Below, piece by piece: positions 21,111 through 38,869 of a stretch of 50,528 bases of DNA. The translations under genes and the position numbers were made by a program. Numbering within the stretch: position 1 is the first letter of the stretch; the number at the start of each line of letters is the position of its first letter. Below the pieces are notes generated by a model. That model made no database searches. It saw only the letters and a list, made by a program, of their open reading frames with translations, and was not told the DNA's origin. The stretch is from Elusimicrobia bacterium LH_S2 (GTDB lineage Bacteria; CG03; SLGR01; JAGXOG01): assembly GCA_023660015.1 (NCBI GenBank), contig JAGXOG010000003.1, positions 1 through 50,528 of the forward strand. The letters are read 5' to 3'.

Positions 21111-24100
21111 TCATATAGAATTTATATATTTTCTAATAAATTTTATTATATTGTTGTCGGCGTTGTTCCCGGCATTCTTCTCAGCATTGTTCCCGGCATT
21201 GTTCTCAGAAAAATCAACTTTCATTTTCTCTCCTGACAAAAACCTAAATACACTCTTTTTCCTTCCTGCGGATATCTTTAATATATTTGACTTGGCTGCT
21301 TTAATCTTTAGGGATATGATTTTAAATAGATTTTTTAGTTCTTCGGGCAAAAGGCCGAAGCGGTCATTCATCTCGTCTTCAATATTTTTAAGTTCTTTAA
21401 AAGTTTTTACAGAAGAAAGTTTCCGGTAAAAAGATAGACGCAGCATCTCGTCATAGATATAATCTTTAGGGATAGAAGCCGAAATAGGAATCTTAATTTC
21501 AACATCCGGTATTTTAACATATTTTTTGCCTTTTTTCGCCGCTAACTCTTCGGCAAGTATGTCGCTGTAGTATTCAAACCCTATTTTCATTATATTACCG
21601 TGCTGCTTTTTTCCCAGAAGTTCTCCGGCGCCCCTGATATGCATATCCCGAAGCGCAAGCTGAAACCCGCCTCCCAGAGCGGAAAACGAAGATAAAGCAG
21701 AAACCCTGTTTTTTACTCCCTCGGTAAGAGTCCCTGGACTATACATTATATAACAGTAACCTTTAATAGTGCTGCGTCCCACGCGGCCCCTTATCTGATA
21801 GATATCAGCCAGGCCCATACGCTCGGCCGAATCGATTATCATAGTATTGACATTCGGTATATCTAATCCGTTTTCAACGATGGTAGTAGCCACCAGACAG
21901 TCAAATTCACCATTGGTAAAACTATCCATTATCTTGTCAATCTTTGCCGGATTCATTCTGCCGTGTATATATTCGGCTTTCAAGCCGGGGATATCTCTTC
22001 CTATCTCTTTTTTTATCTTCTTAATACCCCTTACCGTAGAGTGGATATAAAAACTCTGGCCCCCTCTTTCTTTCTCTCTCATTAATGCTTTTTTAATATC
22101 TCTTCTGTTATAGGGCAGGGTAACTGTCTTTACCCCCAGCCGGCCCGGTGGCGGAGTATTTATAAGTGAAAACCCCTTAACTTTTCCCAGGGCCATAGCC
22201 AGGGTACGGGGTATGGGTGTGGCGGTAGTAGTAAGCGTATCTATTCCTCTGAACTTATACCTCAAATCCTCTTTCTGCTTTACTCCGAAACGCTGTTCTT
22301 CATCTATTATAAGTAGCCCGGGCGCAGGAAAATTCAGGTCTTTAGAAAATAACGCATGTGTGCCTATTACTATATCTACCTTACCCTCGTTTATTCTTTT
22401 TTTTATAGCTTTAGATTCAGCAGGGGCCACCAGGCGGGAGAGCAACTCAATTATAACCGGAAATTCCGCAAACCTATCAAGGAGGGTATGAAAATGCTGT
22501 CGGCAAAGAACTGTTGTGGGAGCCAGAAATATTACCTGCCTGCCGTTTAATACTGCTCTAAAGGCCGCCCTCATAGCAACTTCTGTCTTTCCGAATCCCA
22601 CATCGCCGCAGACTAAACGGTCCATGGCTTTTTTTGATTCCATATCTTTCAGGACTTCTTTTATGGCTTCTTCCTGGTGGCTCGTTAATTTATAAGGGAA
22701 TAAATCGGCGAATTCTTTTTCGATTTCGATGTGGGCCCCAAAGGCATATCCGCTTTCCTTTCTGCTTTTATAAATTTGTAGTAACTTGCCGGAAAAAATC
22801 TTTACGGACTCTCTCACCTTCCTCACTCTCTTATTCCAGTTAGTTCCCATGAGGGAATCCACTTTTATACCTGCGCTCCGGCCGGAATATTTATGAACCA
22901 TCGATGCGGATTCAGCCGCAACGAATATATTTGTCCCCTTACGGTATTCTATTTTCAGGTAATCTCCGGCTTCACCTCCAGACCCGGCGTCGGATAACCC
23001 CCTGAACCTGCCTATACCGAAATGTTTATGCACTACATAATCCCCGAATTTAAAATCAGTAGTTTCGGCGATATTATAGACCGGCGGAGGTTCGCCGTAT
23101 CGCTTGTGGTGATAAAAGAGGTCTCCGATAGAAATTACGGCGGTTCTTATCTCTTCTATACTAAACCCACTATGAAGATAACCTTTTATCCGCCCTGATT
23201 TGGCGCCGGTGGATTCATTAATAATATTTACCCCCTTATTAAGTTCTCCCCGGGTAGGAGCGGCGAGGTAGAATTCATATTCCGAGTCTTTTAAAACAGT
23301 GAGTTCATTTTTAATCTGCTTAATCCCTCCCGGGAAATTAAAGGGCCGCAAGTGGAAAGTAAAATCAGAGGCCTTAAAATCATTAAAACTAACCCAAAAC
23401 GGCTGCAGATTTGAAAAAAAATTCTCTTTGTTGACTGCTGTCTTTTCATTACCGGTTTCAATTAATAGAGGCCGGCGGGTGATATATTCCCCGATATAGG
23501 AAGTCCTTCCATCGGCGCGGTTAAAATTTACCGGGAGAACCTCTGTCTTGCTAATATTTTTTATAGTCCGCTGGGTCCGGGGATTAAATTCTTTTAAACT
23601 TTCTGTGGTATTATTTTTAAATATCACCCTGACCGGATTTTTGCTGCCCGGCGACCAGAAATCAATTACATTCCCGCGGCGTGCAAAATCGCCTTCTTCA
23701 GGCACTACTGTATTTCTTACGTAATATCCGGCAGTTAATTTATCAAGTAAATTGGCATATTGTGTCTTTTTGATTTTAACTTTTAAAACAGCTTCCCTGA
23801 AATTTTCCGGAGACATAATCTTTTCTCCGTAAGCCCGGTTGCTTCCTAAAACAATAACCGGCCGGTCAGCGTTAAGCTTTTGGGCTGTTTCGATTCTCCG
23901 GGAAGGATAATCCAGTGGAAAAGAAAGTACGCCGCAATCCGTAAAAACGGTAAGATTATCTTTCCATCTTTGAATATCGTTTTCTTTGGGAAGGACTATA
24001 AATGTGTCTACTCCTTTTGCTCCGGTCAGAGCCGCGGCAAGCGAGGCAGAGGCACTCTCATTTAATCCCGCAATATTAACTGCTTTGCCCGTATTAGTCA

Positions 24101-24146
24101 GATTTAATATATTTTTAAATTCTTTAGTATTTTTCCAGATATTCAT
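21111..24146 (-). CDS. mfd: Transcription-repair coupling factor
   Basis: UvrB-like segment, RID GDYVVHKHFGIG, CGDVGFGKTEV, DEEQRFG, TATPIPRT, QIRGRVGR, RGAGELLG and TRCF domain. Confidence 0.96.
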   Translation of the reverse strand: MNIWKNTKEFKNILNLTNTGKAVNIAGLNESASASLAAALTGAKGVDTFIVLPKENDIQRWKDNLTVFTDCGVLSFPLDYPSRRIETAQKLNADRPVIVLGSNRAYGEKIMSPENFREAVLKVKIKKTQYANLLDKLTAGYYVRNTVVPEEGDFARRGNVIDFWSPGSKNPVRVIFKNNTTESLKEFNPRTQRTIKNISKTEVLPVNFNRADGRTSYIGEYITRRPLLIETGNEKTAVNKENFFSNLQPFWVSFNDFKASDFTFHLRPFNFPGGIKQIKNELTVLKDSEYEFYLAAPTRGELNKGVNIINESTGAKSGRIKGYLHSGFSIEEIRTAVISIGDLFYHHKRYGEPPPVYNIAETTDFKFGDYVVHKHFGIGRFRGLSDAGSGGEAGDYLKIEYRKGTNIFVAAESASMVHKYSGRSAGIKVDSLMGTNWNKRVRKVRESVKIFSGKLLQIYKSRKESGYAFGAHIEIEKEFADLFPYKLTSHQEEAIKEVLKDMESKKAMDRLVCGDVGFGKTEVAMRAAFRAVLNGRQVIFLAPTTVLCRQHFHTLLDRFAEFPVIIELLSRLVAPAESKAIKKRINEGKVDIVIGTHALFSKDLNFPAPGLLIIDEEQRFGVKQKEDLRYKFRGIDTLTTTATPIPRTLAMALGKVKGFSLINTPPPGRLGVKTVTLPYNRRDIKKALMREKERGGQSFYIHSTVRGIKKIKKEIGRDIPGLKAEYIHGRMNPAKIDKIMDSFTNGEFDCLVATTIVENGLDIPNVNTMIIDSAERMGLADIYQIRGRVGRSTIKGYCYIMYSPGTLTEGVKNRVSALSSFSALGGGFQLALRDMHIRGAGELLGKKQHGNIMKIGFEYYSDILAEELAAKKGKKYVKIPDVEIKIPISASIPKDYIYDEMLRLSFYRKLSSVKTFKELKNIEDEMNDRFGLLPEELKNLFKIISLKIKAAKSNILKISAGRKKSVFRFLSGEKMKVDFSENNAGNNAEKNAGNNADNNIIKFIRKYINSI
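21150..21209. repeat. 5 x 12-bp degenerate tandem repeat in the mfd 3' end
   Basis: Units such as ATTGTTCCCGGC encode SENN-AGNN-AEKN-AGNN-ADNN. Confidence 0.85.
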
Positions 24147-24179
24147 CTTTCTTCTTTAGCGGTCTCAGTCCTGAATTTT

Positions 24180-24444
24180 AAATTTTAGACATTGTCCCAA
24201 AGTAATGGATTAACTGTTATGCAAAGAATCTCTTTTAACGACTTTGTTCTCCTGTCAAAAGTCATGCCGGTTCCGTTAGGAAGGAACTTAAACTGTCTGA
24301 ACTCGTCAATATGACGAGTGAGTTTTTGAGTTTCAAGCGTGACGTCTGCGTGCTGAAAGCAAAAGAACAACCGGAGCAGAAAAAGGGACTCTTTGCATAA
24401 CTATTTCTCATATATCTATTACTTTTGGGATAACGTCAAATTTT
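24180..24444. other. Rod-like nested palindrome, copy 1 (structured RNA or ssDNA element)
   Basis: Imperfect outer inverted repeat; GTTATGCAAAGA / TCTTTGCATAAC (24216-24227, 24390-24401); apical ACTCGTCA-ata-TGACGAGT (24301-24319). Confidence 0.75.
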
Positions 24445-24877
24445 AAGCCGTCTCATTTGACATTTCGTTTAATTTTTTTAACAGCTTACGGTCCGAAAGA
24501 TACCCAAGAAGCTCTATAGCCCTCTCCTTGTCTTCCCAGCTTACTTTTACCGGCTCATCCGGTATATCTGCCCGGGTTCCGGTCTGCTTCATAGAAAACC
24601 AGGACACTTTTTTTATAATAATGCTGTTCCCTCTCCGAAAATGATAACGGGTTTCGGCAAGTTTTCCTTCTATAATACAGCGACAGCCGGTTTCTTCGGT
24701 TACTTCCCGCAATGCCGCTTCTTTTTTAGTTTCTCCCTGCTCAATTTTACCCTTGGGGAAAGTCCAGAAGGGTGCTCTGTCTTTTTGGGGCTGAGATTTA
24801 ATAAGAAGAACCTTGCTGCCTCCATATACCAGTCCCCCCGAAGAAAATTCAAACTCTGTCTTAAGATTTTCAATCAT
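24443..24877 (-). CDS. NUDIX hydrolase
   Basis: Nudix box PKGKIEQGETKKEAALREVTEETG. Start placed at ATG 24877, overlapping the pcrA stop. Confidence 0.9.
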   Translation of the reverse strand: MIENLKTEFEFSSGGLVYGGSKVLLIKSQPQKDRAPFWTFPKGKIEQGETKKEAALREVTEETGCRCIIEGKLAETRYHFRRGNSIIIKKVSWFSMKQTGTRADIPDEPVKVSWEDKERAIELLGYLSDRKLLKKLNEMSNETA

Positions 24878-27800
24878 ATACGTATTCTTTGAGCCCGTCG
24901 TCTCCGAAACCGTCATCTCCGCCGTTAAGGGCCTCATCTATAAAACGCGAGGGTATATGCCACCTGGTCTGTCCATATAACATTCTCTGGGAGGCGCTGG
25001 TAAGATAAAGCTGTTCCTTTGCCCTGGTCATACCCACATAACAGAGCCGCCTTTCTTCCTCCATCTGAATTGGGTCATTTAACGCATCGTAGTGAGGGAA
25101 GAGTTCTTCTTCAAGGCCGGTGAGGAATACAACCTTAAATTCCAGGCCCTTGGCGATATGGAGAGTCATCAGGGTTATATACTCTCTGTCAGAATCCAGC
25201 GAGTCTGCTTCAGAGACCAGGGATATTTCATTTAATATCTCCTCAATATCCCGCTCTTTATTTTCTTCCTCGGCAAAAGCAGATACCAGTTCTTCAATAT
25301 TTTCAATCCGACTGCGGGCAGTAATGTCGTCTTTTTTCTCCAGCCACCTGTGGTATCCGGAGAGATTGATAACCTTTTTTACCAGTTCGTCCGGCGGGGC
25401 ATCTTCTCTCATCTTTTCCAAATGATTAAATAAATCTCTTAACGGAACCAACTTTTTTATGGTAGTGCCAGAAAGGCGCCGGCTGCCTTTCTTTATAAGT
25501 TCATATACAGAAATATTTTCTGCCCCTGCGGCCTCCCTTATGGACTGCTCTGTCTTTTTGCCTATGCGCCGGGGCGGACAGTTTATTATCCGGAGCATGC
25601 TTACATCGTCTTTCGGATTTACCAAAACCTTAAGATAACCCAGTATATCCTTAACTTCTTTTCTTGAATAAAACTTTACTCCTCCCAATATCTTATAGTG
25701 AAGCCGGGCTTTCCTAAGGCTGTCTTCAAAAGTTCTTGACTGGGCGTTGACCCGGTAAAATATTGCTATATCGCCGGGTTTGTATCCTTCATCTTCAATA
25801 AGCCGTACTGCTTCGGCTATCACCGACCGGGCTTCATCACGGTTTGAAAAAAATTCTTTATGTCTAACCCCTATTCCTCTTTCTTTTTGAGTCCAGAGTT
25901 TTTTTTCTTTGCGGGAAGGATTATTTTTTATTACATTATGAGCGGCATCCAGTATATTTCCGGTTGAACGGTAATTCTGCTCAAGTTTGATTATCTTTGC
26001 ATCTTTAAAATGATTTTCAAACTCCAGGATATTCCTTATGTCCGCCCCGCGCCAGCTATAAATTGAATTATGAACAACAATACCGCCGGCAATATAGTTT
26101 CTTAAATCAGGCACCGACAGATCATATACATACCCGTCATACTCCTCAGACTTGATTTCTTTTACCGTATCTTCTTTTATCTGACCATTTTCATAAACGG
26201 GAATAGCCATTTCAGGGTGCAGATGAGCTGCTGGCTGATAGAGATATGCCTTTTTTGAAGTCATCCTGGCTTTTTTAACAATCTCTGTACCTCCACAAGA
26301 AAACAACTTTCTAATAAACTCAATTCCCTCACCATAATTTTTCCTTGAAGCTTCAACTCTCCAAGTGTTTTTTTTGCCGCGGCGGACATTAATCCCTTTT
26401 TTATTGAGCTTCTCTTTAAACTTCTTATCCGAACTGTTAAGCTGAATCCTGTGCGCATGCCAGGGATTTTTCACAGAAGACCTGTTTTCGCCGAACATTG
26501 TAAAATTTATTATCTTGCGGTTAATGTGCTTATTTACATAACCACCGGCGATTAGGTGGGGAAACCGGGGATCAATATCCAGGCTTTTCATTAATTTTTG
26601 GCCGCGGGATACTGTATCTATATTCTGAAATAACCTAATAATTTTTTTCTGTTCTAAAACCATCTTACGGCCCTGCACATAAAAAACAGAAGTCGGTACA
26701 CCAAATTTAAATGCATAATATTGCTCATAATAAATAGCGCTATTTTGTTCTTTACAGGTTTTCAAAATCCATATCTTATCGGCTTTTTCCTGATTTAACC
26801 GCACCATAAGACCGTTTACGGTTTGATTACTTTTACGTTTACTCCTGACTCCTTGAGTAATTCCTATTCTGAACCCTAACTTTTTTTTATACATCAGATA
26901 TACATAATAAAGTCCGGCGGCGGGTTTAAGTTTTCCGAACATTATATGATTTGGCGTTAAACAGAGTTCTCTACCTTTTTTAGTTGTTATACGTAAAATT
27001 CTTCCGCTGTATTTCCGTTTTGAGATGTTATCTATATTTTTCACACCGCTTTTTCCGTGGCCGGTTGAACTTTTTAATTTTTCTCCCTTTCGGAAAGATT
27101 CAACTGACTTTTGTCCGCCGGGACATTCTATCGCTGTACCTTTGACAAGACACTGGTCATCGTCTCCGACCACGCAGATATTGTTTTGCGGAGGAATCAG
27201 GAACCTTATTAAAGTATATTGGGCGTAGTTGGTATCCTGGTATTCGTCCACCATTATATACTTGAATTTCTGCCGGTATTTTTTAAGAATTTCGGGGTAT
27301 TCTTTAAATAATTTTATGGTTTCAATTAAGAGGTCACCAAAATCATATCCCCCGTTTACCCGAAGTATATTTTCGTAACGCTGATAGATATCACCTACTA
27401 TATATCTTGCGCTGTCGGAGGCGGCAGAGGCATTTATTTTAAAGCTTTCCACATCTATAAGATTATTTTTGGCACCGGATATCATCTCTCTTATTCCGGG
27501 CGGCGGAAATTTCTTCGGGTCTATATCCATATCCTTAAGGCAATCTTTTATAACTACCAGTTGGTCTTTTTCGTCATATATCGTAAAACTCTTTTTACCG
27601 TCAAAACGCAGTATCTTTGTTGCCATGGAATGAAAAGTTGAAATCCAGACGCTGGAACCCGCGGGGCCTGCCAGTTTCTTTGCCCGGTCTTTCATCTCCC
27701 GCGCGGCTTTATTTGTAAAAGTTACAGCCAGTATGTTAAAGGGACGCACCCCCTCTTTTAACAGTTTTGCTATGCGGTGGACTATAAGCATAGTTTTGCC

Positions 27801-27905
27801 ACTGCCGGCACCGGCAAATATCAACAAGGGCCCGGCAGTATAATTAACTGCTCTTAGCTGTTCTTTATTTAAGTTTTTATTAATTTTTTTTATATTATTT
27901 TTCAT
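24870..27905 (-). CDS. pcrA: ATP-dependent DNA helicase PcrA/UvrD, intein-containing
   Basis: AGAGSGKT, TFTNKAA, VDEYQDTN, LEQNYRS, TLHIAKGLEF and EEERRLCYVGMTRA. Motif III VGDDDQ/SIY.WRGA is split by an insert. Confidence 0.96.
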   Translation of the reverse strand: MKNNIKKINKNLNKEQLRAVNYTAGPLLIFAGAGSGKTMLIVHRIAKLLKEGVRPFNILAVTFTNKAAREMKDRAKKLAGPAGSSVWISTFHSMATKILRFDGKKSFTIYDEKDQLVVIKDCLKDMDIDPKKFPPPGIREMISGAKNNLIDVESFKINASAASDSARYIVGDIYQRYENILRVNGGYDFGDLLIETIKLFKEYPEILKKYRQKFKYIMVDEYQDTNYAQYTLIRFLIPPQNNICVVGDDDQCLVKGTAIECPGGQKSVESFRKGEKLKSSTGHGKSGVKNIDNISKRKYSGRILRITTKKGRELCLTPNHIMFGKLKPAAGLYYVYLMYKKKLGFRIGITQGVRSKRKSNQTVNGLMVRLNQEKADKIWILKTCKEQNSAIYYEQYYAFKFGVPTSVFYVQGRKMVLEQKKIIRLFQNIDTVSRGQKLMKSLDIDPRFPHLIAGGYVNKHINRKIINFTMFGENRSSVKNPWHAHRIQLNSSDKKFKEKLNKKGINVRRGKKNTWRVEASRKNYGEGIEFIRKLFSCGGTEIVKKARMTSKKAYLYQPAAHLHPEMAIPVYENGQIKEDTVKEIKSEEYDGYVYDLSVPDLRNYIAGGIVVHNSIYSWRGADIRNILEFENHFKDAKIIKLEQNYRSTGNILDAAHNVIKNNPSRKEKKLWTQKERGIGVRHKEFFSNRDEARSVIAEAVRLIEDEGYKPGDIAIFYRVNAQSRTFEDSLRKARLHYKILGGVKFYSRKEVKDILGYLKVLVNPKDDVSMLRIINCPPRRIGKKTEQSIREAAGAENISVYELIKKGSRRLSGTTIKKLVPLRDLFNHLEKMREDAPPDELVKKVINLSGYHRWLEKKDDITARSRIENIEELVSAFAEEENKERDIEEILNEISLVSEADSLDSDREYITLMTLHIAKGLEFKVVFLTGLEEELFPHYDALNDPIQMEEERRLCYVGMTRAKEQLYLTSASQRMLYGQTRWHIPSRFIDEALNGGDDGFGDDGLKEYVYD
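26067..27152 (-). mobile_element. Intein (362 aa) in helicase motif III
   Basis: Starts CLVKGT, block B LTPNH, ends YVYDLSV..LRNYIAGGIVVHN followed by Ser+1. Confidence 0.95.
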
Positions 27906-27908
27906 ATT

Positions 27909-28520
27909 CTATATTATGAACTCTGCCACTATCCCAAATGCGGAGTATGAAGAAACCGGACCACAGCAGTTAAGCTCTTTAATTTCCAATTTGTATTCTC
28001 ATTAATATACTCTATATTCCATAAAAATTCTTTAAACTGCAGCTTATATATATTATCTTTACGGGTTTTAGGGCTTCTTTGCTTATGCGGTCAATATATT
28101 TAAATACCTTCTAACTTATGCCCCCCCGGGGCGGAACAAGTATTATACCCTCATACAGTTTTTTACTCACAGCTAAAGATGGCTTACCTTACCGGCTGTA
28201 AATATTATCTTAACCGGCGGGGCAATCTTTTGCAAATTATTTGGCATCACGGATAGAGGCTAAAGAATTTTCTACGCCGGTTATCCGACGGCCAGGCACG
28301 GCTATATAAAAAAGTATAGAACCTATTCTATCATAAAATCATAAAAATCAAGAATCTTATCCGCATTACCGGTTTTAGCTTTTATAAGAGCATATATATT
28401 TTCTATCTGATACGAGTTAGGCTGAAAGAAAGAATAAGGGGAAAGTACCACGGATATTTTCCCTATTTTAACTTTCATCTTTTCGGCGCCGCCTACTGTT
28501 TCATAATTGCCGGCATACAT
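27909..28520 (-). pseudogene. RlmD/TrmA-type uracil-5-methyltransferase remnant
   Basis: SFFQPN, ILDFY, ITGVE...SIRDAK followed by a stop (28237-28239), PPRGG, IIYISC and HTPH fragments in shifting frames; N-terminal half absent. Confidence 0.8.
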
Positions 28521-28545
28521 TTTACTTTAAAAACCCTGTTTACTT

Positions 28546-29425
28546 TCATAATTGTTCCCGAAAAAACTCTGTTCCCGAAAACCTGAAAAGCGGCTTGCCG
28601 ACAGCAACACCTCCATAATCAGCGACAATATCACATTTTGCTCTTAAGATATATATAATATTTTTCCGGTCCGAATCAGTAAGAATCTCATAGTTTGCCT
28701 GCCCCTTGGAAATTATATAATCGGCAGAGTCAAAAAGAGCTTTTGCCTCCGAGTTTAAAGAGTTATATTCAAGACCGACAGCGGCAGGGACTTCTATTAT
28801 CTTAAACTTTTTATCGAGCCCAAAAAATTCGGCATCCTCTATAGTTACATCATTAATTATCGGTGATTTGTTAACGAAGATTACAATATCCAACCCGGGA
28901 TTTATTTTTAATATTTCTTCTATCAGAATACCGTCAAACCCAAACTCTTTGGCATTATCCGACAAAAAGATTATAGAAGAAGAATTTTTAATTATACTCC
29001 GGAACTTATCTGTCTTTTTAGGAGAAATATCTATTTTTATCTCTTCTTCAATTAATTCCTCAACATTAAAATCCTGCAAAATACCGTAATCAATTATATT
29101 ACCACTAAGCAAATCTTTACTGCTATGAGGAAACTGTCCCCCGAGCGGGCGACAAGTTCCCGGACCCTTTTTATAAGTTTTCTTACCCCCCGGTTGGACT
29201 CTTCTGTCAGCTCACTGTATGCATCTCTATTACCGGTGGTTTCTATGACAGATTTAAATACTTTTGTAGCTGTGACCGGCGGAGGATCGGCCGGATCAAG
29301 CCCGGCTATAATACCCGACACTTCTTTTAATACCCTTATACGTTTTGAGAAATCGGGGGTGGAAAGTTTTATGCTTTTACCGCCTGTCTTAAAAAACACT
29401 CCAGGCATTCAATCTTCATCTTCAT
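28546..29425 (-). pseudogene. DUF89/ARMT1-like damage-control phosphatase with two frameshifts
   Basis: MKMKIECLECFLRQ from ATG 29425, shift near 29375, shift near 29105 into GNIIDYG; DNAKE (canonical DNAGE), PIINDVT, SKGQANYE and KC motifs. Confidence 0.85.
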
Positions 29426-29426
29426 C

Positions 29427-31157
29427 TTACTGCACCATCTTATCGAGCATCATCTTTGCTTTGTAATTTTCAGGATCAAGTTTTAATACCTTATTGAATT
29501 CCCTGGTGGCTTCCTTGAGCCGGCCCTGGTAATAATATATATATCCCAAATTAAAATGGGCGTCGGGCATAGCCGGATTTCTTTTGAGGGCTTCTATATA
29601 GTACTTTGCGGCGTCGTTTCTCTTGCCCAGGGTAAAATAAATATTACCGAGGTTATTGAAAGCTCCTGTTAAACTGTCATCGAGCTTAATAGCTTTCTTG
29701 AAATTTTTAATTGCCGGCTGAAATTCCCTGTCTTTTGCCTGAATCCAGCCCAGTTTATAATATATTAAGGCATTCTGTGGTTTTGACTCTATAAGTTTTT
29801 TAAGTTCCCTTTTGCTGTATTCCCTTTCGGTATCAAAAAAATCTGTCTCTCCCAATAATTTTTTATGCGAGAAAAGGGGAGTTAGAACCGCTCGAGCCCA
29901 GAAAAAGAGCAGAAGCGCAAATAGAATCACGGCAATTACTTTATAACTTTTATGATATCGGTTTATTTTTTCTTTTTTTTCTCTATATTTTCCCGCTATA
30001 TCACCAACAGAGAGCCCCATAAGAAAAAATGCCCATAAACTTGAGATTGTAAACCTCATATTTACAGATACAAAGCTGTGAATAATTATAGCTGTTGCCC
30101 CTAAAAAAGCACCCTGTTTTATATATCCGCCCGAGCCGTATTTTAAATTTAATATAAAAAAAGTTGCTAAAAGCCATATATATATTCCGAAACCGGTTAT
30201 TCCTGTCTCTGCAAAAATATCTATAAACTCATTATGCGCATAATTAACTATGAATTTCCCCTGTGGAATTATTTTAAGGAGTTCTTTTGAGGCATAGGCC
30301 GGAAATTCATTATGGTAATTTCCTATACCCACCCCGCTTACGGGGTTATCGGCGGCCATCTTTAAACTGTCTTTCCATATCAGCAGGCGCTGGGTATCTC
30401 TATTTAATTCATCCCTCTTTATAAACCCAAATAAAATTATAAGTCCGGCAATTATAACGACCGCATAAGAGGGAATCTTTTTCCTGCCGTAAGCAAAATA
30501 CCACAATATTGCTGCTCCGGTTATTCCCATCCAGGCGCCCCGGGTTTTTGTATAATATAAAGCAAAAACCATAAATAAGAGGGCTATGAACTTCCAAATT
30601 CTCTTTTTTTTAATAAAAAACGCCGCCGCAACAGGTATGAGCCCAATTAAAAATGAGGCAAAGAAATTTGGATTACCGAAAGTAGCAAAGATTCTGCCTA
30701 ATTTCGGCACCTGAAGAATCCATATACCCCCGGAAACCTGGAGTAATCCGTAAAGACTTACCAGCCCGCCGATTGCCGTAATATACCCTATGAGAAAATC
30801 CGCCCCACAGAAAAAAAACAGCCTGTATGCCAATATATATGCCACGACGCCGAAAAGCATTCTCTGCCATTCAGGGTAGGCGGCCGCGCCGGCGGGGGAA
30901 AAAAGATAAGCAAATGTATAAAAAACGGCAAGGGCAATAAACGGTAAAACAACAGCTTCTTTTATTATCTCAGATATTTTTCTATATTCTTTTATGAACC
31001 ACAATAAAAAGAGCAGCAACAGGGAAAGCTCTACCCCAATAAGTTTATACCTGATTAATTTAACATCAACTAAAAAAACAAGTGAGGTAAAAAAAATTAG
31101 CCAAGCTACTTTAATTAAGGCAGTAAGTGTTTTATTTTTCTTAATTTTAGAAAACAC
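29427..31157 (-). CDS. O-antigen ligase family membrane protein with C-terminal TPR repeats
   Basis: TFGNPNF, TRGAW, R..IW, GVGIGNY and AHNE motifs, followed by TPRs. Confidence 0.88.
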   Translation of the reverse strand: MFSKIKKNKTLTALIKVAWLIFFTSLVFLVDVKLIRYKLIGVELSLLLLFLLWFIKEYRKISEIIKEAVVLPFIALAVFYTFAYLFSPAGAAAYPEWQRMLFGVVAYILAYRLFFFCGADFLIGYITAIGGLVSLYGLLQVSGGIWILQVPKLGRIFATFGNPNFFASFLIGLIPVAAAFFIKKKRIWKFIALLFMVFALYYTKTRGAWMGITGAAILWYFAYGRKKIPSYAVVIIAGLIILFGFIKRDELNRDTQRLLIWKDSLKMAADNPVSGVGIGNYHNEFPAYASKELLKIIPQGKFIVNYAHNEFIDIFAETGITGFGIYIWLLATFFILNLKYGSGGYIKQGAFLGATAIIIHSFVSVNMRFTISSLWAFFLMGLSVGDIAGKYREKKEKINRYHKSYKVIAVILFALLLFFWARAVLTPLFSHKKLLGETDFFDTEREYSKRELKKLIESKPQNALIYYKLGWIQAKDREFQPAIKNFKKAIKLDDSLTGAFNNLGNIYFTLGKRNDAAKYYIEALKRNPAMPDAHFNLGYIYYYQGRLKEATREFNKVLKLDPENYKAKMMLDKMVQ

Positions 31158-31174
31158 CGGAGTTTTTAAAATTT

Positions 31175-32722
31175 TTAACGGTCTTTTTGATAGGATATAA
31201 AGAGAGGACGCTCGTTCCTTATTATATCAAATACTACTCCGTCTTTAAGAGAAACATTTTTTGATGCTTTCTTAAAATCTTCTGTGGAAGCAGTTTCAAT
31301 TTTATTTAATTCAACTATTACATCCCCTACTCTAAGCCCTATTTCATATCCTTCTGCGGCCGGGTCCACATTAATAACAACCACTCCCTCATCTCTATTT
31401 AACCCGTACCTGTTTTTAATATTGCCGGTAATTCCGGATACCGTTATTCCCAGCCATTCGGCGGTTTTTCCTCCGGTTTCTTCTTTCTCGATATCTTCGG
31501 CCGAACCACCCGGCGGGGACGCAACCTCTTCTGGCATCTTTGATAGTGTTATATTAATTTGCGTCTTTTTGGCTTCCCGCACAACTCCGAGATTAATTTT
31601 ATCTTTGGGTTTAGCAGAAGAGACTTTCTGCTGAAGGTCACGAACATCTTTAATCTGCCTTCCGTTATATTCAATAATTGTGTCGCCCCGCTTGAGACCG
31701 CCTTTTTCAGCAGGCGAGCCGGAAACCACCCTGTTTACAAGCACCCCATTGGCTGATGACAGATTAAACCTATTTTGTATTGCTTTGTTGACATCCTGTA
31801 TTTGGACACCGAGCCAACCGCGTATAACCTGGCCTTTCTCAATAAGTTCTTCTAAAATATCTTTTGCGTCATTTACGGGAATTGCAAAACCGACGCCAGA
31901 AAAGACACCTGTAGGCGCAAATATAGCAGTATTTATTCCCACTACATCGCCGGAAAGATTAACCAGAGGGCCTCCGGAATTACCCCGGTTTATAGCCGCA
32001 TCGGTCTGCAGCATATTTCGGTATCGGGATTGCTCAACCTGAACGTCCTGCCTCAAAGCGCTTATTATGCCGGCTGTAAAAGTCTGGTTAAGGCCGAATG
32101 GGCTGCCCGCAGCAAGGACCCAGTCGCCTATTTGAATATCATCCGAATTGCCGAATTTAATCGTATCGAACTTTTTGCCAGATTTAATACATATCACGGC
32201 TAAATCAGTGCGCGAATCCTGGCCGACCAATTCGGCATCATAGTTTTTTCCGTCATAAGTTGTAACCTTAAGTTCTTCGGCATCGCGTATGACATGGTAA
32301 TTTGTTAAGACATACCCTTCGGAACTTACTATAAAGCCCGAAGCGGTCCCTTCCTGCCTTCGGCGATTCGTTTCGGGCTCGGGAGTTTCCCGACGAGGAC
32401 TCCGGCCGAAAAAATCATTAAAAAATTCCTCAAAAGGATCCCCGTGATAAAACCGATAAAAAGGAGATTGGATTTCAACTATCTGAACTGCGGAAATATT
32501 TACAACTGCCGGTTCTATTTTTTTTATTACGGCAGCAAACGACTGCGGAATGTTTACGGTTTCTTTTTTAGCCTGAGAAGAATCATTATTAAAACCGGTA
32601 TTTCCTTCGGTCACTGCACTCTTTTGCGGCGGCTCTTTCTGCGCAGGCGGTTTAACAACTTGCGATATAACTAAACCTCCGGTTAAAATTATAAGTAATA
32701 TAATTAAATTTTTTTTATCCAT
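31175..32722 (-). CDS. htrA: HtrA/DegP (Do) serine protease with two PDZ domains
   Basis: LTNYHV, DLAV, TDAAINRGNSGGPL and PDZ domains. Confidence 0.95.
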   Translation of the reverse strand: MDKKNLIILLIILTGGLVISQVVKPPAQKEPPQKSAVTEGNTGFNNDSSQAKKETVNIPQSFAAVIKKIEPAVVNISAVQIVEIQSPFYRFYHGDPFEEFFNDFFGRSPRRETPEPETNRRRQEGTASGFIVSSEGYVLTNYHVIRDAEELKVTTYDGKNYDAELVGQDSRTDLAVICIKSGKKFDTIKFGNSDDIQIGDWVLAAGSPFGLNQTFTAGIISALRQDVQVEQSRYRNMLQTDAAINRGNSGGPLVNLSGDVVGINTAIFAPTGVFSGVGFAIPVNDAKDILEELIEKGQVIRGWLGVQIQDVNKAIQNRFNLSSANGVLVNRVVSGSPAEKGGLKRGDTIIEYNGRQIKDVRDLQQKVSSAKPKDKINLGVVREAKKTQINITLSKMPEEVASPPGGSAEDIEKEETGGKTAEWLGITVSGITGNIKNRYGLNRDEGVVVINVDPAAEGYEIGLRVGDVIVELNKIETASTEDFKKASKNVSLKDGVVFDIIRNERPLFISYQKDR

Positions 32723-32747
32723 CCCGTTGTAATCTCCTTAAATTAGA

Positions 32748-35328
32748 CTATCTTTTCCTTACCGCCGGGATCTCTATTGCCTCGCCATATCGGTTTTTGC
32801 CGAGTATATCTTTCTGACGAAAACCCGGCGGCACTATTATATCAAGAATATTTGTGTCTGATTCATATTTCCTTCCGGAAAACCCATATTTATCCGTAAC
32901 AAGATTATCATTTACAGTGAGTAATTTACCGTCTTCGGCGGCGGCCATAACCGTTGCTGCGACACCCCAGTTTTGTACCGAAGTTTCTATTAATTCTTCA
33001 TCTATAAAAATATTTATAGTATCTGTCATCAAGCTGACACTCACTTCCGGTTCGCCTATTTTGTCACCAGCGGTATTATAAACAGCTTTCTTGTCGCCGC
33101 TGATAACTACTGCATACTCCCAGGCGTCTTCAGGCCTGAGGTAGGCCTTGCGTCCGGGCAACAATGAAGTATTGCCCAGCCCGGTTTTATTATTAATGTC
33201 TATATAGATATCTATCAGAGCATTCCCGAAACCGAGGGGAGCGTTATCTATATTATTTATGGAAGTAAACTGCAGGGCTATGACCTTTTCACCGCTGCGC
33301 TGATTAACATCAATTTTTCTGAAATCCGTATCTCCTTTATAATCTTCATATTCTTTACTTATGGCATAATTTCCCGGACCGTAATTATCAAGGGCGGGGT
33401 CTATATTGGAAATAATACTCCGGCTTGAATAAAGTTCAGGAGCTGTAATCTCCATATGTCCGCCGGCAGGCAAGATTTTCCCGTCTACCACTGTTTTCAT
33501 ATATATTTTTTTTCTTGACCGGACTCCGAAGTATTTAAAAGGCAAAGAAAACTCCAGAATGCTGCTGCTGTATCCTACATTGTAGTTGCCTGTCAAAGGG
33601 TCCCACTGCTCATCCTGAGATGCCCTGTATATTATAGTTTTTAGGGGGATAACTTTTTTCCAACTAACTTCGGTTGATATAGGAAAATCCTGAATAACTT
33701 CCGGAATATGTTTTAATTTGTCGGGGTAAAGAGCTGCAGCATCAGCATTCATGTGCCCCAGATTAACTCTTATTTCACTTGCAGAATCAGATGATATATC
33801 AAATCTAAAATATATATTGCTGCCGTCGAACCCGCACCAAAAACTTTTTATTATCTTAGAGTCAAAATTTACCCGGTAGGCGCCTTTCCATTCTCCCGGG
33901 CCTATTTTCCCATTACATTCCACATCTAAGGTATTGTTTATTTTTGCTGCCGGCTCTACGGGTTTCTTTTCTATAAGGGGCAAAAAATATTTCGGCGGGG
34001 GTGGCAGACCAATCTTACGGTATATCTCAATTAAGCTGCGCCGGAATATACGGTCATAATTTTTATTTGAAATATTATCCGTTAATATTCCCGACTCGGC
34101 CATTAAGAGCTTATTCTGTATATAAAAAAAGGTTATCCAGTTTAGCCCGGCCGGAATTTTTGTAACTGTAAAATACTTCACGGGTATCCTCTAAATAATT
34201 TTTAAGTTTTTGTAATTCGGCTTTTAACTTAACCCTGCCGGTTTTAAAAGACGAACTGCTCAGATTAACGGTTTGGGTTGTAAAATTAATAGAATATATT
34301 GAACTTTTCAATTCATCATAAGTTATATATTTATTATCTGTATTTTCAATAAAAGAGAGAAATTCCCGCGGTGTTTTTATGAAGGAAATAATATCTTGAT
34401 TTATTTTAGCAGTTGTAAAACTTTGAGTTGTATTTTTTATTTCAAAATTTCCCGGGGCTGTATATATTACCATCGGCCGGGTATTAATGCTTTGAGTTTC
34501 AACTATTTTTGTGGACTTCACCAAAATCCATTTAATATCGGTCTTTTCCAGTTCATCTATTCCATTATCTGTTATATATCCTCCTTTAGGCAAAAAACCT
34601 TCCGGAAAATCCCCTCTCCATTTTTTATATGCTACAAGCCCTTCAAGTATCTGAACTTTTGTCCGTTCAGAATCAAGTAAGGATAGATAAGCATTACTTA
34701 AAGTAGTAGTGGCTTCCCCGCGGTATTCGGTGTCCATAGTTTTTTGAAGTATTTCGCTGAAATTATTTAACTCTTTGGTTATTAGTTGTAAGACAGCTGA
34801 TTTTATCTTCGGAGTATAAGTGCTGATATCTACAAAATCCAAATAGGCTTCTGATTGACGTATTGCTTTTCCGATATAACTGTCAGCTTCTAAAATCTGC
34901 CCTTTAATAAAGGAGGAAGTACTATGGTTTAAATTATATTTGCCGGCAAGATACTCTGCCTGAGAATCGCTGAGTTCCTCAGGGTGCAGAGTTATAATAG
35001 GCGGCAAAGATATATCCCCATTTTTAATATCCTTTAAAAAATTTACGACATTACCAGATAATAATATATTTAAAGGAATATTTTTATAATCATTTTTAAT
35101 TATATAAAGAAAATCTCTCCATTCACCAAGGGCTTTTTTTTGAAATTCTGTTTCTGCATTATCGAGAGACGAAATTTCAAATTTTACCGTTAAAAAAATA
35201 TCTTTTTTGCCCGCCGTAGCCTCCGGAGGCTTTATCTCTTCCGGCGCAAGCCCCGGCTTCGCGCAGCCATAGATTAAAACGGCCCACAGTATCGGGATTA
35301 TTATTTTTATCAGGTCAGTTTTTCTCAA
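32748..35328 (-). CDS. GH57 amylopullulanase-like lipoprotein with glucodextranase/DOMON-like C-terminus, split by a +1 frameshift
   Basis: Lipobox IYGC. ORFs 34111..35328 and 32748..34181 join if the T7 run (34124-34130) is T6. Motifs AES...YDRIFR..L..IY...G.PPP, DPALDNYGPGNY, IDIYID and AWEYA. Confidence 0.65.
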
Positions 35329-35740
35329 GGATTACTCTGTATTCTTTTCTTCTTCCTGATATAATTTCCAAGTTCCGGTTCCATTTTTTATATCCCGGCT
35401 TAATTAATGTAAATAGCGGTTTTTCAACTCCGGATGTCGATACTATTTTAAATTTTACCGGCGTTTTGCCTTTATAATAACCGTTGACAAATACCTTTGC
35501 TTCGGCGGGGATAGATACTATTTTTATTTCCGCAGGGCCTTCCTTGGGTTTTAAACTTTCTTTCTCATTGCTTTTTTTCTCATTACTTTTTTTCTGAGCC
35601 GGTGCTGGTCTATTGTTTGCAAAATCGGGGGAAGGAAGAGGTTTTTTATCTCCAGAAATATACCCATAAAGAAGATATCCTGCAAAAAATAGAATAATAA
35701 CATTAACGGCCAGAATAATTAACAGCCCGGGTTTTTTCAT
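35315..35740 (-). CDS. PEGA domain membrane-anchored protein
   Basis: N-terminal TM; SIPAEAKVFVNGYYKGKTP and KPGY..W. Confidence 0.85.
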   Translation of the reverse strand: MKKPGLLIILAVNVIILFFAGYLLYGYISGDKKPLPSPDFANNRPAPAQKKSNEKKSNEKESLKPKEGPAEIKIVSIPAEAKVFVNGYYKGKTPVKFKIVSTSGVEKPLFTLIKPGYKKWNRNLEIISGRRKEYRVILEKN

Positions 35741-36228
35741 TCGATTAACTTTTTAATCCGGTTGTTAAACTTTGCTATGCTTCCGTCGAGAGATTCAAAC
35801 ATTTCCTCAAAATTTTCGGTTCCCTCGACTTTTTCCGACAACAACTTAATATCTTCTTTTAAATTTTTAACCTGTTTTATCTCTTTCTTTAAAAGAGCAG
35901 CGGCCTTGTTACTTAATTCCTGAGCTTTTTTTAACTGCTGTGAAATTTCAGGGGGCAGTTCGGCTGGTTTTTCCGAAGAGCTCTTTTCTTCCAAATCTTT
36001 AAGTTTATCAAGTATTCCCCATAACTGGTCTTCAATTTTAGAATTATTCTCTTCGGCAACATTTACTATCTCTTTAATCTGGTCAATAGCATTAGAACTT
36101 AATGAATTTGCGCCGGACTTGTCGGTCTTATCGGAATTTTTCCATACCATTGTCCACAATACAAGATTCAATATCGCAAAGATAATGGCCAGCGCCGCAA
36201 ATATAATTACCGGGTTTATGGTTTCCAT
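35737..36228 (-). CDS. Hypothetical protein, N-terminal TM plus coiled coil
   Basis: SD AAGGAG, hydrophobic N-terminus, heptad-rich remainder, ATGA overlap with the next gene. Confidence 0.7.
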   Translation of the reverse strand: METINPVIIFAALAIIFAILNLVLWTMVWKNSDKTDKSGANSLSSNAIDQIKEIVNVAEENNSKIEDQLWGILDKLKDLEEKSSSEKPAELPPEISQQLKKAQELSNKAAALLKKEIKQVKNLKEDIKLLSEKVEGTENFEEMFESLDGSIAKFNNRIKKLIE

Positions 36229-36309
36229 TTAAATTATAATCTCCTTACTACAATATTTATTAATAATAACTGATTTTTACAGGTTTTTCAAATTTTTTTA
36301 AACAGTAAT

Positions 36310-36909
36310 TTAACTATCCAATAATTTCTTTTTATATAATATTCGGGAAGAATGCTCTAAAGTTGACAACAGCCCCACGGCTCCTTCAAGCGTGCCGGCA
36401 GCGGCAAAAGCCCCGTGCCCCTCTACCATTACTATCCCGTGTTCTTTTATAACCCCGGGAAGCCTACGGACAACTTCGCCGGAGGCGATGCTGCTTTGTT
36501 GAACTTTAATTACAGATACCCGGGGGATATAAAACCGTCCTTCATCATCGATAAATTCGAAGTTTTTTTTACCATAAGATATTACTGTGGCAGTCGGCGG
36601 ATGAGCATGCGCTACGGCTTTAAAAGTTGTATTTTTATAGATACTTTTATGTACTTCAATTTCAACCGACGGCTTTACAGGGTTTACTAAGTCGGTTTCT
36701 AAATTTAACCCGGTATTAATGTCAACTTTTACGATATCCTCTCTATTTAAAAATCCCAGGCGGCTGCCGGATGCTGTTATAGATATATATTCTCCGTTTT
36801 TCATACTCATATTTCCGGCTTTAAGCGATATAAGCCCGGATTTAAAAAGTATTTCACCGCTTTCTTTAAATTTATTAAAATTTGACAACATTAATTTTTT
36901 CCCTTTCAA
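36310..36909 (-). CDS. Class II aldolase/adducin family protein
   Basis: GNMS, ITASG, PSVE..VH..IY, HAHP and HG. True start may be the internal Met (MLSNF). Confidence 0.9.
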   Translation of the reverse strand: MKGKKLMLSNFNKFKESGEILFKSGLISLKAGNMSMKNGEYISITASGSRLGFLNREDIVKVDINTGLNLETDLVNPVKPSVEIEVHKSIYKNTTFKAVAHAHPPTATVISYGKKNFEFIDDEGRFYIPRVSVIKVQQSSIASGEVVRRLPGVIKEHGIVMVEGHGAFAAAGTLEGAVGLLSTLEHSSRILYKKKLLDS

Positions 36910-37010
36910 AAATCCGGCCGGTCCTAAAAATAATTTCCTCTTTCCGTATCCGCCTTCACCATCATGCCCCCTTCCGTTCCCCTTCAGGCCGCATCAAAAC
37001 TATCTATGTC

Positions 37011-37265
37011 CTCTTTATTAAATTATGATTCTTTCGTATTTAAGTTGCAAAAATATTTTAAGTGACTTAGTCCTTTTAGCATAAGTCAGTCCGGTTCTTT
37101 AGAAAAAGCTCAAACTGTTTGAAGCCGACGATGAGTCGGCTGAGTTTTTGAGCTTTATGGCTGACTTTTGTCTGCCGAAGGTAAAAGGACTACCTGAACG
37201 AATAAATACTTTTTGCAGCTTTAAAACAACTTTTAGACGATAACTGCACGATATTTAATAAAGAG
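37011..37265. other. Rod-like nested palindrome, copy 2
   Basis: Perfect 13-bp outer inverted repeat CTCTTTATTAAAT / ATTTAATAAAGAG; TAGTCCTTTTA / TAAAAGGACTA; apical AGCCGAC-gatga-GTCGGCT (37123-37141). Confidence 0.75.
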
Positions 37266-37372
37266 CCTAAATTATCCTATTTAATAAATCCGAGAACTGT
37301 ATCGGAAGCTGTCACTCTGCAACTGGTTAAATTATCGGCAGTAATATCGAGCCGAAAAATTATCTATGTGAT

Positions 37373-38869
37373 TCATTGTTTAGGAAAAAGAGGAAGACCG
37401 TCGCGGATATTTTTAAAATTGTCAGTGGGCGACCATTTAAAGTTAATATCTTTCGGAGCTCTTATCACCCCCAACTGTTTTTTGATTTTTTTACAAGTTT
37501 CGGGCATAAAAGGCTCAAGCATTTGGGAAATATTTCTGAGAACTTCAAAAAGATTTGTAAGCACTTCCGCCAGTCGCTTCTCTTCTCCGTTTTTATTTAG
37601 TTCCCAGGGCTTTTGTTGTTCTATGTAAATATTGGCTGCTTTTACTATATCCCAGATTTTTTGAAGAATAATATTAAATTTTAACTCGCCGTAAAGACCG
37701 TCAAGCTCGCCATAGAGCTTATTTATCTTCCGGTCAAATCCGTCCGGTTCTTTTGTTAAATATTCCGGGCTGTATTTATTTATCATAGACAATACCCTCT
37801 TTAAAAGATTACCCAGTTCATTAGCCAGATCGGAATCATAACGGCTTTTGAATTGTTCTTCGGAAAAATTTCCGTCCAACCCGAAAGTCACCTGCCTTAA
37901 AAGAAAATACCTGAATGAATCTACATTCCATTTTTCTATAAGTTCAAGTGGATTAACAACATTCCCGAAAGATTTACTCATTTTTTCACCCGTTATAGTC
38001 CACCACCCGTGAGCAAAAATTGTCTTCGGAAGGGGAAGTTCCAAAGCCATGAGCATAGTCGACCAATAGACAGAATGCGTGGTTAGTATATCCTTGCCTA
38101 TAAGGTGAAAATTTGCCGGCCACCACTTTATTTCTTGCGGAGCGATATAGCCGGTAGCCGAATAATAATTTATAAGAGCATCGAACCAGACGTAAGTGAC
38201 ATAGCCATCATCAAAAGGCAGCGAAATTCCCCAGGAAAGACGGCTCTTGGGCCTTGATATGCAAAGGTCATCAAGTTTATTGTTATTTAAAAAACCAAGA
38301 ACCTCGTTCCTGCGGATTTCGGGCATAATATATCCGGGAGTTTGCTCAATATATTTTATTAATTCATCCTGGTATTTCGACATTAGAAAGAAATAATTAT
38401 CTTCTTCTATCTTCTGAACATCACGTCCGCAATCCGGACAACACCCGTCTTTAAGGTCTTTTTCTTTCCAAAATCTCTCATCAGACACACAATACCACCC
38501 CGAATAAGAACGCTTTTGGATATCCCCTTTCTTATAAAGAGTCCGAAGTATATTTTGTACTCTTTCTTTATGGTCTTTATCCGTAGTTCTTATAAATCCG
38601 TCATTGGAAATATTAAGTTTTACCCATAAATCTTTAAATTTACCGACCATACCGTCGATATGCTCTTTAGGCGACATCCCTTTTTTTGCTGCCGCATCCT
38701 GTACTTTCTGGCCATATTCGTCTGTGCCGGTAAGAAAAAAAACTTCCTTTTGGCAAGATCTGTAATACCTCGCCAGCACATCGGCGGCCACCTGGGTATA
38801 CGCATGCCCTATATGCGGGTCGGCGTTTACATAATAGAGGGGCGTTGTTATATAGATTCCCTTTTTCAT
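37373..38869 (-). CDS. metG: Methionine--tRNA ligase (short form, no C-terminal tRNA-binding domain)
   Basis: HIGH, GTDE.GQK, YVWFDAL.NY, GKDI and KMSKS. Confidence 0.97.
   Translation of the reverse strand: MKKGIYITTPLYYVNADPHIGHAYTQVAADVLARYYRSCQKEVFFLTGTDEYGQKVQDAAAKKGMSPKEHIDGMVGKFKDLWVKLNISNDGFIRTTDKDHKERVQNILRTLYKKGDIQKRSYSGWYCVSDERFWKEKDLKDGCCPDCGRDVQKIEEDNYFFLMSKYQDELIKYIEQTPGYIMPEIRRNEVLGFLNNNKLDDLCISRPKSRLSWGISLPFDDGYVTYVWFDALINYYSATGYIAPQEIKWWPANFHLIGKDILTTHSVYWSTMLMALELPLPKTIFAHGWWTITGEKMSKSFGNVVNPLELIEKWNVDSFRYFLLRQVTFGLDGNFSEEQFKSRYDSDLANELGNLLKRVLSMINKYSPEYLTKEPDGFDRKINKLYGELDGLYGELKFNIILQKIWDIVKAANIYIEQQKPWELNKNGEEKRLAEVLTNLFEVLRNISQMLEPFMPETCKKIKKQLGVIRAPKDINFKWSPTDNFKNIRDGLPLFPKQ

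Follow-up and report, generated by a model that had tools for sequence, protein, structure and literature searches.

Rod-like intergenic repeats of an Elusimicrobia bacterium as probable miniature transposable elements with a hairpin tip shared across phyla

The first 50,528 nucleotides of contig JAGXOG010000003.1 from Elusimicrobia bacterium LH_S2, hereafter the window, in which all coordinates are given, carry two intergenic repeats, elements A and B, each predicted to fold into a long rod-like hairpin. The assembly from which the window comes (G000) is a metagenome-assembled genome (MAG) of 1.04 Mb in 130 contigs, 67% complete. Both repeats lie on the + strand, by which we mean the orientation chosen in an earlier sequence-only reading of this DNA, and all four genes that flank them lie on the - strand, each element being antisense to its neighbours. 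Element A occupies 24188-24437 (250 bp), with the mfd (TRCF) gene downstream (21111-24146, its start 41 nt from the end of the element) and a NUDIX hydrolase gene upstream (24443-24937). Element B occupies 37027-37267 (241 bp) between a class II aldolase gene downstream (36310-36909) and the methionyl-tRNA synthetase gene metG upstream (37373-38869). The bounds of both elements are set by terminal inverted repeats (TIRs) and target-site duplications (TSDs): the 8-mer AAATTTTA is found in identical form at both borders of A (24180-24187 and 24438-24445), and TAAATTAT is repeated at both borders of B (37019-37026 and 37268-37275). The left TIR of A, which begins GACATTGTCCCAAAGTAATGGAT, extends over 24188-24211 on the + strand and pairs with the right TIR at 24414-24437 (- strand), both being aligned with other copies. 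The exact landing point of A is the NUDIX stop codon (24443-24445, - strand), which lies within the right duplication; before insertion this site would have been a spacer of about 38 nt within the gene string. The sequence-only reading had reported two such elements, intergenic and in the same orientation, at 24180-24444 and 37011-37265; their existence, placement and orientation stand, and only their bounds have had to be shifted slightly.

That each of these stretches forms one long hairpin, as had been claimed, is borne out by folding the two reported intervals. The free energy for A is -91.2 kcal/mol as against -55.1 +/- 4.65 for 200 shuffled sequences (z -7.76) and that for B is -75.8 kcal/mol as against -49.6 +/- 4.5 (z -5.76), and in neither case did any of 200 shuffles fold as well. 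By BLAST the two elements are 70% identical (A 54-218 aligned with B 37056-37217) and differ by insertions and deletions; the sole open reading frame (ORF) within A is a TTG ORF of 61 aa. The short segments that occur in a common order, and the three stem pairs that differ in sequence and stay complementary, can be read directly from the pairwise alignment. At the end of each rod lies what we term the tip module, consisting of a helix H1, an internal loop and a helix H2. In A this module spans 24273-24344 (+ strand, loop CUGUCUGA / GAGUU) and matches our covariance model R1 with 72.9 bits (E 8e-18); in B it spans 37095-37166 (+ strand, loop CUGUUUGA / GAGUU) and scores 80.1 bits (E 7e-20). The module is capped by an apical hairpin, ACTCGTCA-ATA-TGACGAGT followed by GAGTTTTTGA in A (24301-24329) and AGCCGAC-GATGA-GTCGGCT followed by the same GAGTTTTTGA in B (37123-37151), both resembling a terminator on the + strand. 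In addition, B carries an outward promoter-like site on the - strand (37022-37051), in which TTGCAA from the left end is separated by 17 nt from CATAAT, the latter formed by the element tip together with the TSD; this is a consensus match only (9/12), and it faces the aldolase gene. By eye, similar hexamers are supplied by the AT-rich duplications of other B copies.

A and B are members of a larger family, of which an assembly search of G000 recovered 13 full copies in addition to deleted and partial ones. Six of the full copies, element A included, are of type A (85-92% identity) and four, element B included, are of type B (82-89%); there are also two diverged copies, denoted A2, and one A/B chimera, together with internally deleted copies of 123 and 159 bp and end fragments. 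The elements are multi-copy, measure 238-252 bp and contain no transposase gene, and their TIRs, about 24 nt per end in type A and about 17-25 nt in type B, can be aligned across copies. Among 15 two-ended elements the flanking direct repeats are perfect (8/8) in eight and agree at 7/8 positions in four, with one case each of 6/8, 5/8 and 3/8; these 8-bp repeats are AT-rich and vary in sequence from copy to copy. One B copy is inserted within an A2 copy with duplication of AAATTATT, the second A2 copy representing the uninterrupted site. A comparison with G001, a genome of the same genus, is of similar import, since the homologous blocks that flank site A are 586 nt apart in G000 and 327 nt apart in G001 (259 nt shorter), and those that flank site B 485 nt and 117 nt, respectively (368 nt shorter). 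No base-exact empty sites were recovered in G001, the spacers being too diverged, and this genome contains no R1 core match. Because of the TIRs, the 8-bp TSDs, the nested insertion and the absence from the orthologous spacers of G001, we consider A and B to be, in all probability, miniature inverted-repeat transposable elements (MITEs), mobilised as double-stranded DNA by a transposase of the DDE type. The suggestion of the sequence-only reading that these could be non-autonomous mobile elements is supported, and further copies exist. The repeats are a transposon derivative, and not a free-standing non-coding RNA (ncRNA) or ribozyme gene.

The same early reading had considered mobilisation as single-stranded DNA (ssDNA) or RNA and suggested a search for linked genes. 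Movement by a Y1/HUH transposase, in the manner of the IS200/IS605-type PATE or of REPIN/RAYT, or alternatively via RNA by a reverse transcriptase (RT), would suit both the rod-like shape and the strong orientation bias described below, and Y1_Tnp genes are indeed present (three matches in G000 and one in G007, a genome of the same order). None of them adjoins a copy or lies in a contig region that holds one, RVT_1 has no match in G000, and the single RT of G007 is found about 620 nt from only one of the 56 copies in that genome. Importantly, TIRs on every well-bounded copy, combined with TSDs that are perfect in 8/15 cases and agree at 7/8 positions in four more, constitute a DDE signature and are not products of HUH or RT mechanisms, and the flanking 8-mers differ from copy to copy, which leaves no fixed target motif. 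We regard this route as largely refuted and very improbable.

The ends of type B (GGTTCTTTCGTA...), like those of the related copies in G007 and in the related genome G005, can be aligned for about 30 nt to the right end of a remnant ISL3-family transposase gene found in G005; the copies of type B, G007 and G005 share ends of the form GG(C/T)TCTTTCG/T..., a fit not seen in type A. The inverted repeats (IRs) of ISL3 insertion sequences (ISs) start GGCTCTTCG and these elements generate 8-bp repeats, according to Table 3 of PMC6305408 and to PMC11448079, which also describes a MITE mobilised by ISL3. The ISL3 transposase domain PF01610 is present in G007 (221 bits), in G005 (118 bits, truncated) and in G024 (144 bits), all three of which carry the core, and is absent from G017 and G021, which carry 1-2 core copies. 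Judged by its ends, type B derives from an ISL3-family IS, with a transposase of that family as the putative acting enzyme. The sequence-only reading had named an Rfam match, a match to a described IS end, or a lack both of further copies and of significant covariation, as outcomes that would tell against it; an IS-end match was found, namely that of type B with the ISL3 end, no Rfam match emerged, and further copies exist. A search of G000 for core halves split around a transposase gene gave only chance matches inside coding genes.

The ends of type A read G(G/A)C(A/G)T(C/T)GTCCCAAAAG. In PMC7986276 the IS6 family is described as producing 8-bp target repeats and as having IRs with a G dinucleotide at the tips and with cTGTt and caaa motifs. 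An IS6-family transposase is present in G000 as an ORF with a Zn-finger extension on contig C72 (29.5 bits against PF13610, cut-off 27). The surrounding element (C72:5-1859, locus L063) is about 1.86 kb long, encodes a long N-terminal Zn-finger extension and is bounded by the inverted repeats GGTACTGTCAAA... and GATACTGTCAAA...; its frame is broken at eight consecutive A, and 4 nt of contig remain beyond the right repeat. Type A has the same inner rod with different, loosely IS6-like ends, so that the ends would have been swapped, and the nested insertions and chimeras of G000 show how such a swap is possible. An example of how ends become exchanged around a rod is provided by a mini-chimera at C36:14905-14999 (G000), where the right end of a type-A element directly abuts the left end of a type-B element and a B-like end fragment precedes. 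Elsewhere in G000 (C42:23575-24330) a scrambled patch combines part of a type-A end, ATTACACGATT(A/T) in four direct repeats and stop-containing remnants of an IS3-type orfA; an A2 element with an internal deletion follows (24118-24276). Two other sets of candidate partners were set aside. An IS3-like element is found in two copies, C81:1870-2855 and C54:6651-8065, which are 94% identical, have frame breaks and both reach the contig end; its inverted repeat starts TGTAGTGCTCCCCAAAAGTC, and in C81 a fragment of a type-B MITE end is found some 50 bp beyond it. As the IS stops about 50 bp short of this fragment, it is ruled out as the parent of B. Likewise, the rve-type elements of G001 and G007 give weak PF13610 matches and have ends unlike those of the repeats.

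What types A, A2, B and the G007 types have in common is the inner rod and not the ends. In 15 related rods, comprising 68 pairs, 85.7% of the cells are paired, and 29 pairs are changed on both sides as against 20.1 +/- 2.2 in shuffled sets (0/500 reach this number) and 4-10 when the 3' partners are slid, with the proviso that the structure was derived from the same sequences, which favours the test. Types A, A2, B and G007 all retain, with compensatory changes, a one-armed side hairpin (GCY-NNN-RGC before AAAAG), the pair 142/148 of which is CG in eight rods and UA in six, with one unpaired cell. The tip module itself is about 70 nt long and comprises two covarying helices separated by an invariant asymmetric internal loop, 5' YUGUYUGA / 3' GAGUU (8 vs 5 nt). 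In 33 tip modules from eight lineages, with 89.2% of the cells paired, covariation scores 0.482, compared with 0.139 after shuffling (0/500) and 0.07-0.13 after sliding; the motif columns of this set were fixed by the search pattern, a bias that is removed by the use of R1. The matches to R1 keep GUYUGA and GAGUU and vary in the lower helix, which may be CUCAAA/UUUGAG, CUAAAA/UUUUAG, UUACGC/GCGUAA, CUCCAA/UUGGAG or CGACCGA/UCGGCG. Since the loop is kept while the lower helix changes, the conserved object is the 8-by-5-nt internal loop. The covarying stems and conserved loop sequence, initially proposed from two copies, are thereby upheld in both the 15 rods and the 33 modules.

Such a pattern could in principle originate purely at the level of DNA. 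On this account the element is a foldback palindrome, the stems of which are compensated by copying from arm to arm or reflect separate foldback origins of the subfamilies, and the centre is a double-stranded site for the transposase or for a host protein that bends the DNA and that transposition requires. In its favour, the family is mobile DNA, the two strands are of roughly equal folding stability (summed minimum free energies of 827 vs 785 kcal/mol for 13 copies), the 5' half of the core is a near-perfect 15-bp palindrome in the CTCAAAC-type copies, and the spread of the core is patchy and burst-like, the 26 genomes of the phylum having between 0 and 56 copies each. However, the asymmetric loop (8 vs 5 nt) and the one-armed hairpin persist across subfamilies, and homogenisation between arms should erase both; likewise, a lower helix that is free in sequence and yet paired is more easily reconciled with a fold than with a binding site on the duplex. 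We therefore hold an explanation confined to DNA to be possible, if rather doubtful.

At the other extreme, the tip module or the whole rod might be a functional structured RNA, protein-binding or catalytic, for which the MITE is only the vehicle and the fold of which is under selection locus by locus. The invariant loop with both flanking helices covarying over at least six phylum-level lineages is in accord with this, as are an excess of G-U over A-C pairs on the GAGUU strand, the compensated retention of the one-armed side hairpin, and a UGA...GA arrangement beside helix H2 that could form tandem sheared G-A pairs. Yet Rfam 15 gave no match in the window at the gathering score, and permissive scans found nothing on A or B at E up to 10 and nothing on the copies of other phyla at E up to 5. 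Furthermore, in the window's order every adjacent gene runs opposite to the GAGUU strand and no conserved promoter was seen, the orientation with respect to genes varies between lineages, and there is no neighbour gene in common. We consider it unlikely that the RNA as such is what is maintained at each locus. The earlier suggestion of a ribozyme or ncRNA gene is likewise not sustained, the Rfam scan being without match, a ribozyme core being absent and the repeats being transposon derivatives. Readings of the loop as a K-turn, a sarcin-ricin motif, a C/D box or a hammerhead core were compared by eye only, and none fits. Strings of the core motif matched only unrelated primers in the literature, and no RNA runs are listed as covering window positions 23300-25300, for which one run of DNA/unknown type has a small share. 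Rfam also gave a sub-threshold match to RF03531 (42.8 bits vs 65.2 needed, E 2e-4) at about 24987-25091 on the - strand (L001:2308-2412), within a UvrD-like gene; RF03531 is a small RNA annotated inside a helicase gene of Clostridioides difficile. The window gene at 24870-27905 (- strand) encodes a UvrD/Rep-type helicase with an intein, the Intein_splicing domain (residues 286-613) lying between the N- and C-terminal helicase domains.

The distribution of the tip module extends well beyond the genome of origin. When this and related genomes were searched with a covariance model, as the sequence-only reading had advised, R1 matches among 26 Elusimicrobiota genomes numbered 13 cores in G000, 56 in G007, 1-2 in six others and none in the same genus and the same family. 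Eight genomes of other lineages contain 5, 5, 5, 17, 23, 10, 11 and 7 matches, and within one other phylum only 3 of 150 further genomes have any. This patchy, burst-like distribution is the pattern of mobile DNA. A scan with the exact pattern, taking one genome per species, returned 40 stretches, of which six are full-length relatives of the A/B family (nhmmer E 1e-33 to 1e-40), seven, in Nostocales, apparently represent one conserved coding stretch, and 27 belong to hairpin repeats of other kinds, unrelated in their arms, which bear this central motif at the tip. The latter comprise 13 in two MAGs labelled Syntrophomonadaceae, four in Flavobacterium/Flavobacteriaceae, three in Sphingobacterium, three in Saccharimonadales, two in Nitrospinota and one each in Butyrivibrio and in a MAG labelled Deltaproteobacteria. 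The module is multi-copy in Elusimicrobiota, Bacteroidota, Bacillota, Patescibacteria, Nitrospinota and the one Deltaproteobacteria-labelled MAG. Neither element B nor the core pattern was matched in the collections of plasmids, phages and viral contigs, and among 27 neighbouring proteins scanned there was no common neighbour gene across phyla.

Several subfamilies have peculiarities of their own. In copies from Flavobacterium, Sphingobacterium, Saccharimonadales and Nitrospinota (L094, L106, L115, L076, L101, L109, L079, L098, L102 and L104) another hairpin lies downstream of the rod, its stem made up of a polypyrimidine and a polypurine strand (for example TTTCTTTTTC-ATCAAG-GAAAAAGAAA), and this hairpin is not found in the Elusimicrobial copies. 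An unusual apical hairpin, CGAGC-GNA-GCGAG, in which tandem G-A pairs may form, is shared by the repeats of the 'Syntrophomonadaceae' MAGs (L077 and kin) and the Elusimicrobiota family-f8 copies (L124 and L126), and hints at an exchange of tip variants between phyla. The main subfamily of G007 (L150-L180, 28 copies aligned) contains short inner repeats TTGAGMCCTAAA and has conserved outer flanks that begin and end GTTTCA; two of its copies stand in tandem, 250 nt apart.

A further regularity concerns the genes between which the elements lie. In G000, 10 of 12 loci are situated between co-directional genes and at all 10 the repeat is antisense to them, the two others having mixed neighbours; here a 'left ORF' at B was disregarded as a spurious frame of 100 aa, the true neighbour being the aldolase gene. 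Of the 56 copies in G007, 43 were examined: 37 are antisense to both neighbours, two are sense, none is mixed, and four have one flank only, all of these being antisense. A scan of A and B found the apical hairpin with GAGTTTTT(T) to be terminator-like on the + strand only. Given this bias and the presence of the hairpin and T-run on one strand alone, we infer a polarity filter, by which sense insertions in operons have been lost; an insertion bias tied to replication may be an alternative source of the same orientation. The single G005 copy, which has the T-run, is antisense, and the seven family-f8 copies, which are without it, are distributed as three sense, two antisense and two between convergent genes. 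Termination as a general function of the core is ruled out, the T-run being missing from the family-f8 and Bacillota copies.

These elements can be brought together in a single scheme. The repeats would be non-coding IS derivatives, mobilised in trans by a DDE transposase whose staggered cut in AT-rich targets spans 8 bp, and their modular inner rod would carry a tip module shared with multi-copy repeats of other phyla. In this order of bacteria they occupy short spacers between co-directional genes and persist almost exclusively with the hairpin and T-run strand antisense, the likely reason for the bias being that sense copies would stop transcription of the operon. Antisense copies, which are tolerated, are probably transcribed together with the genes and form a long hairpin within the message, and the conserved loop may well serve as a binding platform in its single-stranded fold. 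To this explanation as a whole, that is, MITE origin, tip module and orientation taken jointly, we assign a probability of about 0.75.

Certain observations weigh against the scheme. PF01610 has no match in G000, which is 67% complete, and type A matches no IS well, its ends agreeing at 17/30 positions with those of the IS6-family element on C72 and at 13/30 with the ISL3 end by manual count. As a terminator, the hairpin is atypical in having GAG between the stem and the T-run, and the 'Syntrophomonadaceae' MAG family has the T-run and yet shows four sense loci and two antisense between co-directional genes. The counts of G-U vs A-C pairs on the GAGUU strand are 28/12, 25/11 and 6/4 for modules and 77/62 for full rods, from copies that are not independent, and with so mild an excess of G-U either strand is a candidate for the one that folds. 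Finally, in a palindromic DNA repeat covariation can arise without selection on the fold.

How far the tip module has a role of its own is a separate matter. We tentatively entertain the possibility, without thinking it the likelier outcome, that the invariant loop between covarying helices is an undescribed RNA/ssDNA recognition module, in which tandem G-A pairs conceivably provide a platform to which some widely conserved protein binds. Such a module would have spread across at least six phyla on MITE backbones (ISL3-like, IS6-like and others) and would have a selectable effect on operons.

Comparison with known systems separates the ordinary from the unusual. The ISL3-family MITEs, as represented by the Microcystis MITE of PMC11448079, are similar in having inverted ends that start GG(C/T)TCTT(T)CG, 8-bp direct repeats, no ORF and multiple copies; here, by contrast, the whole element of about 240 bp is a rod with a cross-phylum tip module, type A has other ends, and the genome yielded no ISL3 transposase. 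Likewise, the IS6-family elements and their two known MITEs, as covered by PMC7986276, resemble the repeats in their 8-bp target repeats, the type-A ends conforming loosely to their IR pattern, but the agreement of type A with C72 is partial, the C72 frame is broken, and IS6 movement through cointegrates fits simple MITE insertions poorly. The BOX elements of Streptococcus pneumoniae and S. suis, according to PMC3049150, are modular MITE-like repeats that contain a self-folding boxB between boxA and boxC or, in S. suis, boxE and boxF, insert into one another and are co-transcribed with operons. By that description they are, of the systems compared, the nearest in modular architecture, the same tip module here standing between type-A or type-B ends; tandem boxB arrays occur in BOX, and none were seen here. 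The Correia, ERIC and BIME repeats, as outlined in the Background of PMC3049150, are also intergenic hairpin repeats with orientation-dependent effects on operons (as terminators or attenuators, RNase sites and promoters). They differ from the present family in having unrelated sequences and transposase partners. To our knowledge, none of them has been reported with a core shared across phyla. What is ordinary about A and B is being a MITE; what is unusual is the cross-phylum tip module, the exchange of ends on a common rod and an orientation to which there are almost no exceptions.

MITEs are usually dismissed as decaying transposon ends, and here the same structured tip is found on backbones with different ends. 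An invariant loop between covarying helices, multi-copy in several phyla and without an Rfam entry, points to a portable functional module and not to junk. On the practical side, such repeats break MAG assemblies and can pass for ncRNA genes. The near-absolute antisense orientation (37 vs 2 in G007) amounts to a natural experiment on the filtering of insertions in compact genomes, and the family lends itself to the study of what repeats of this kind require for their movement, or of how they affect operons.

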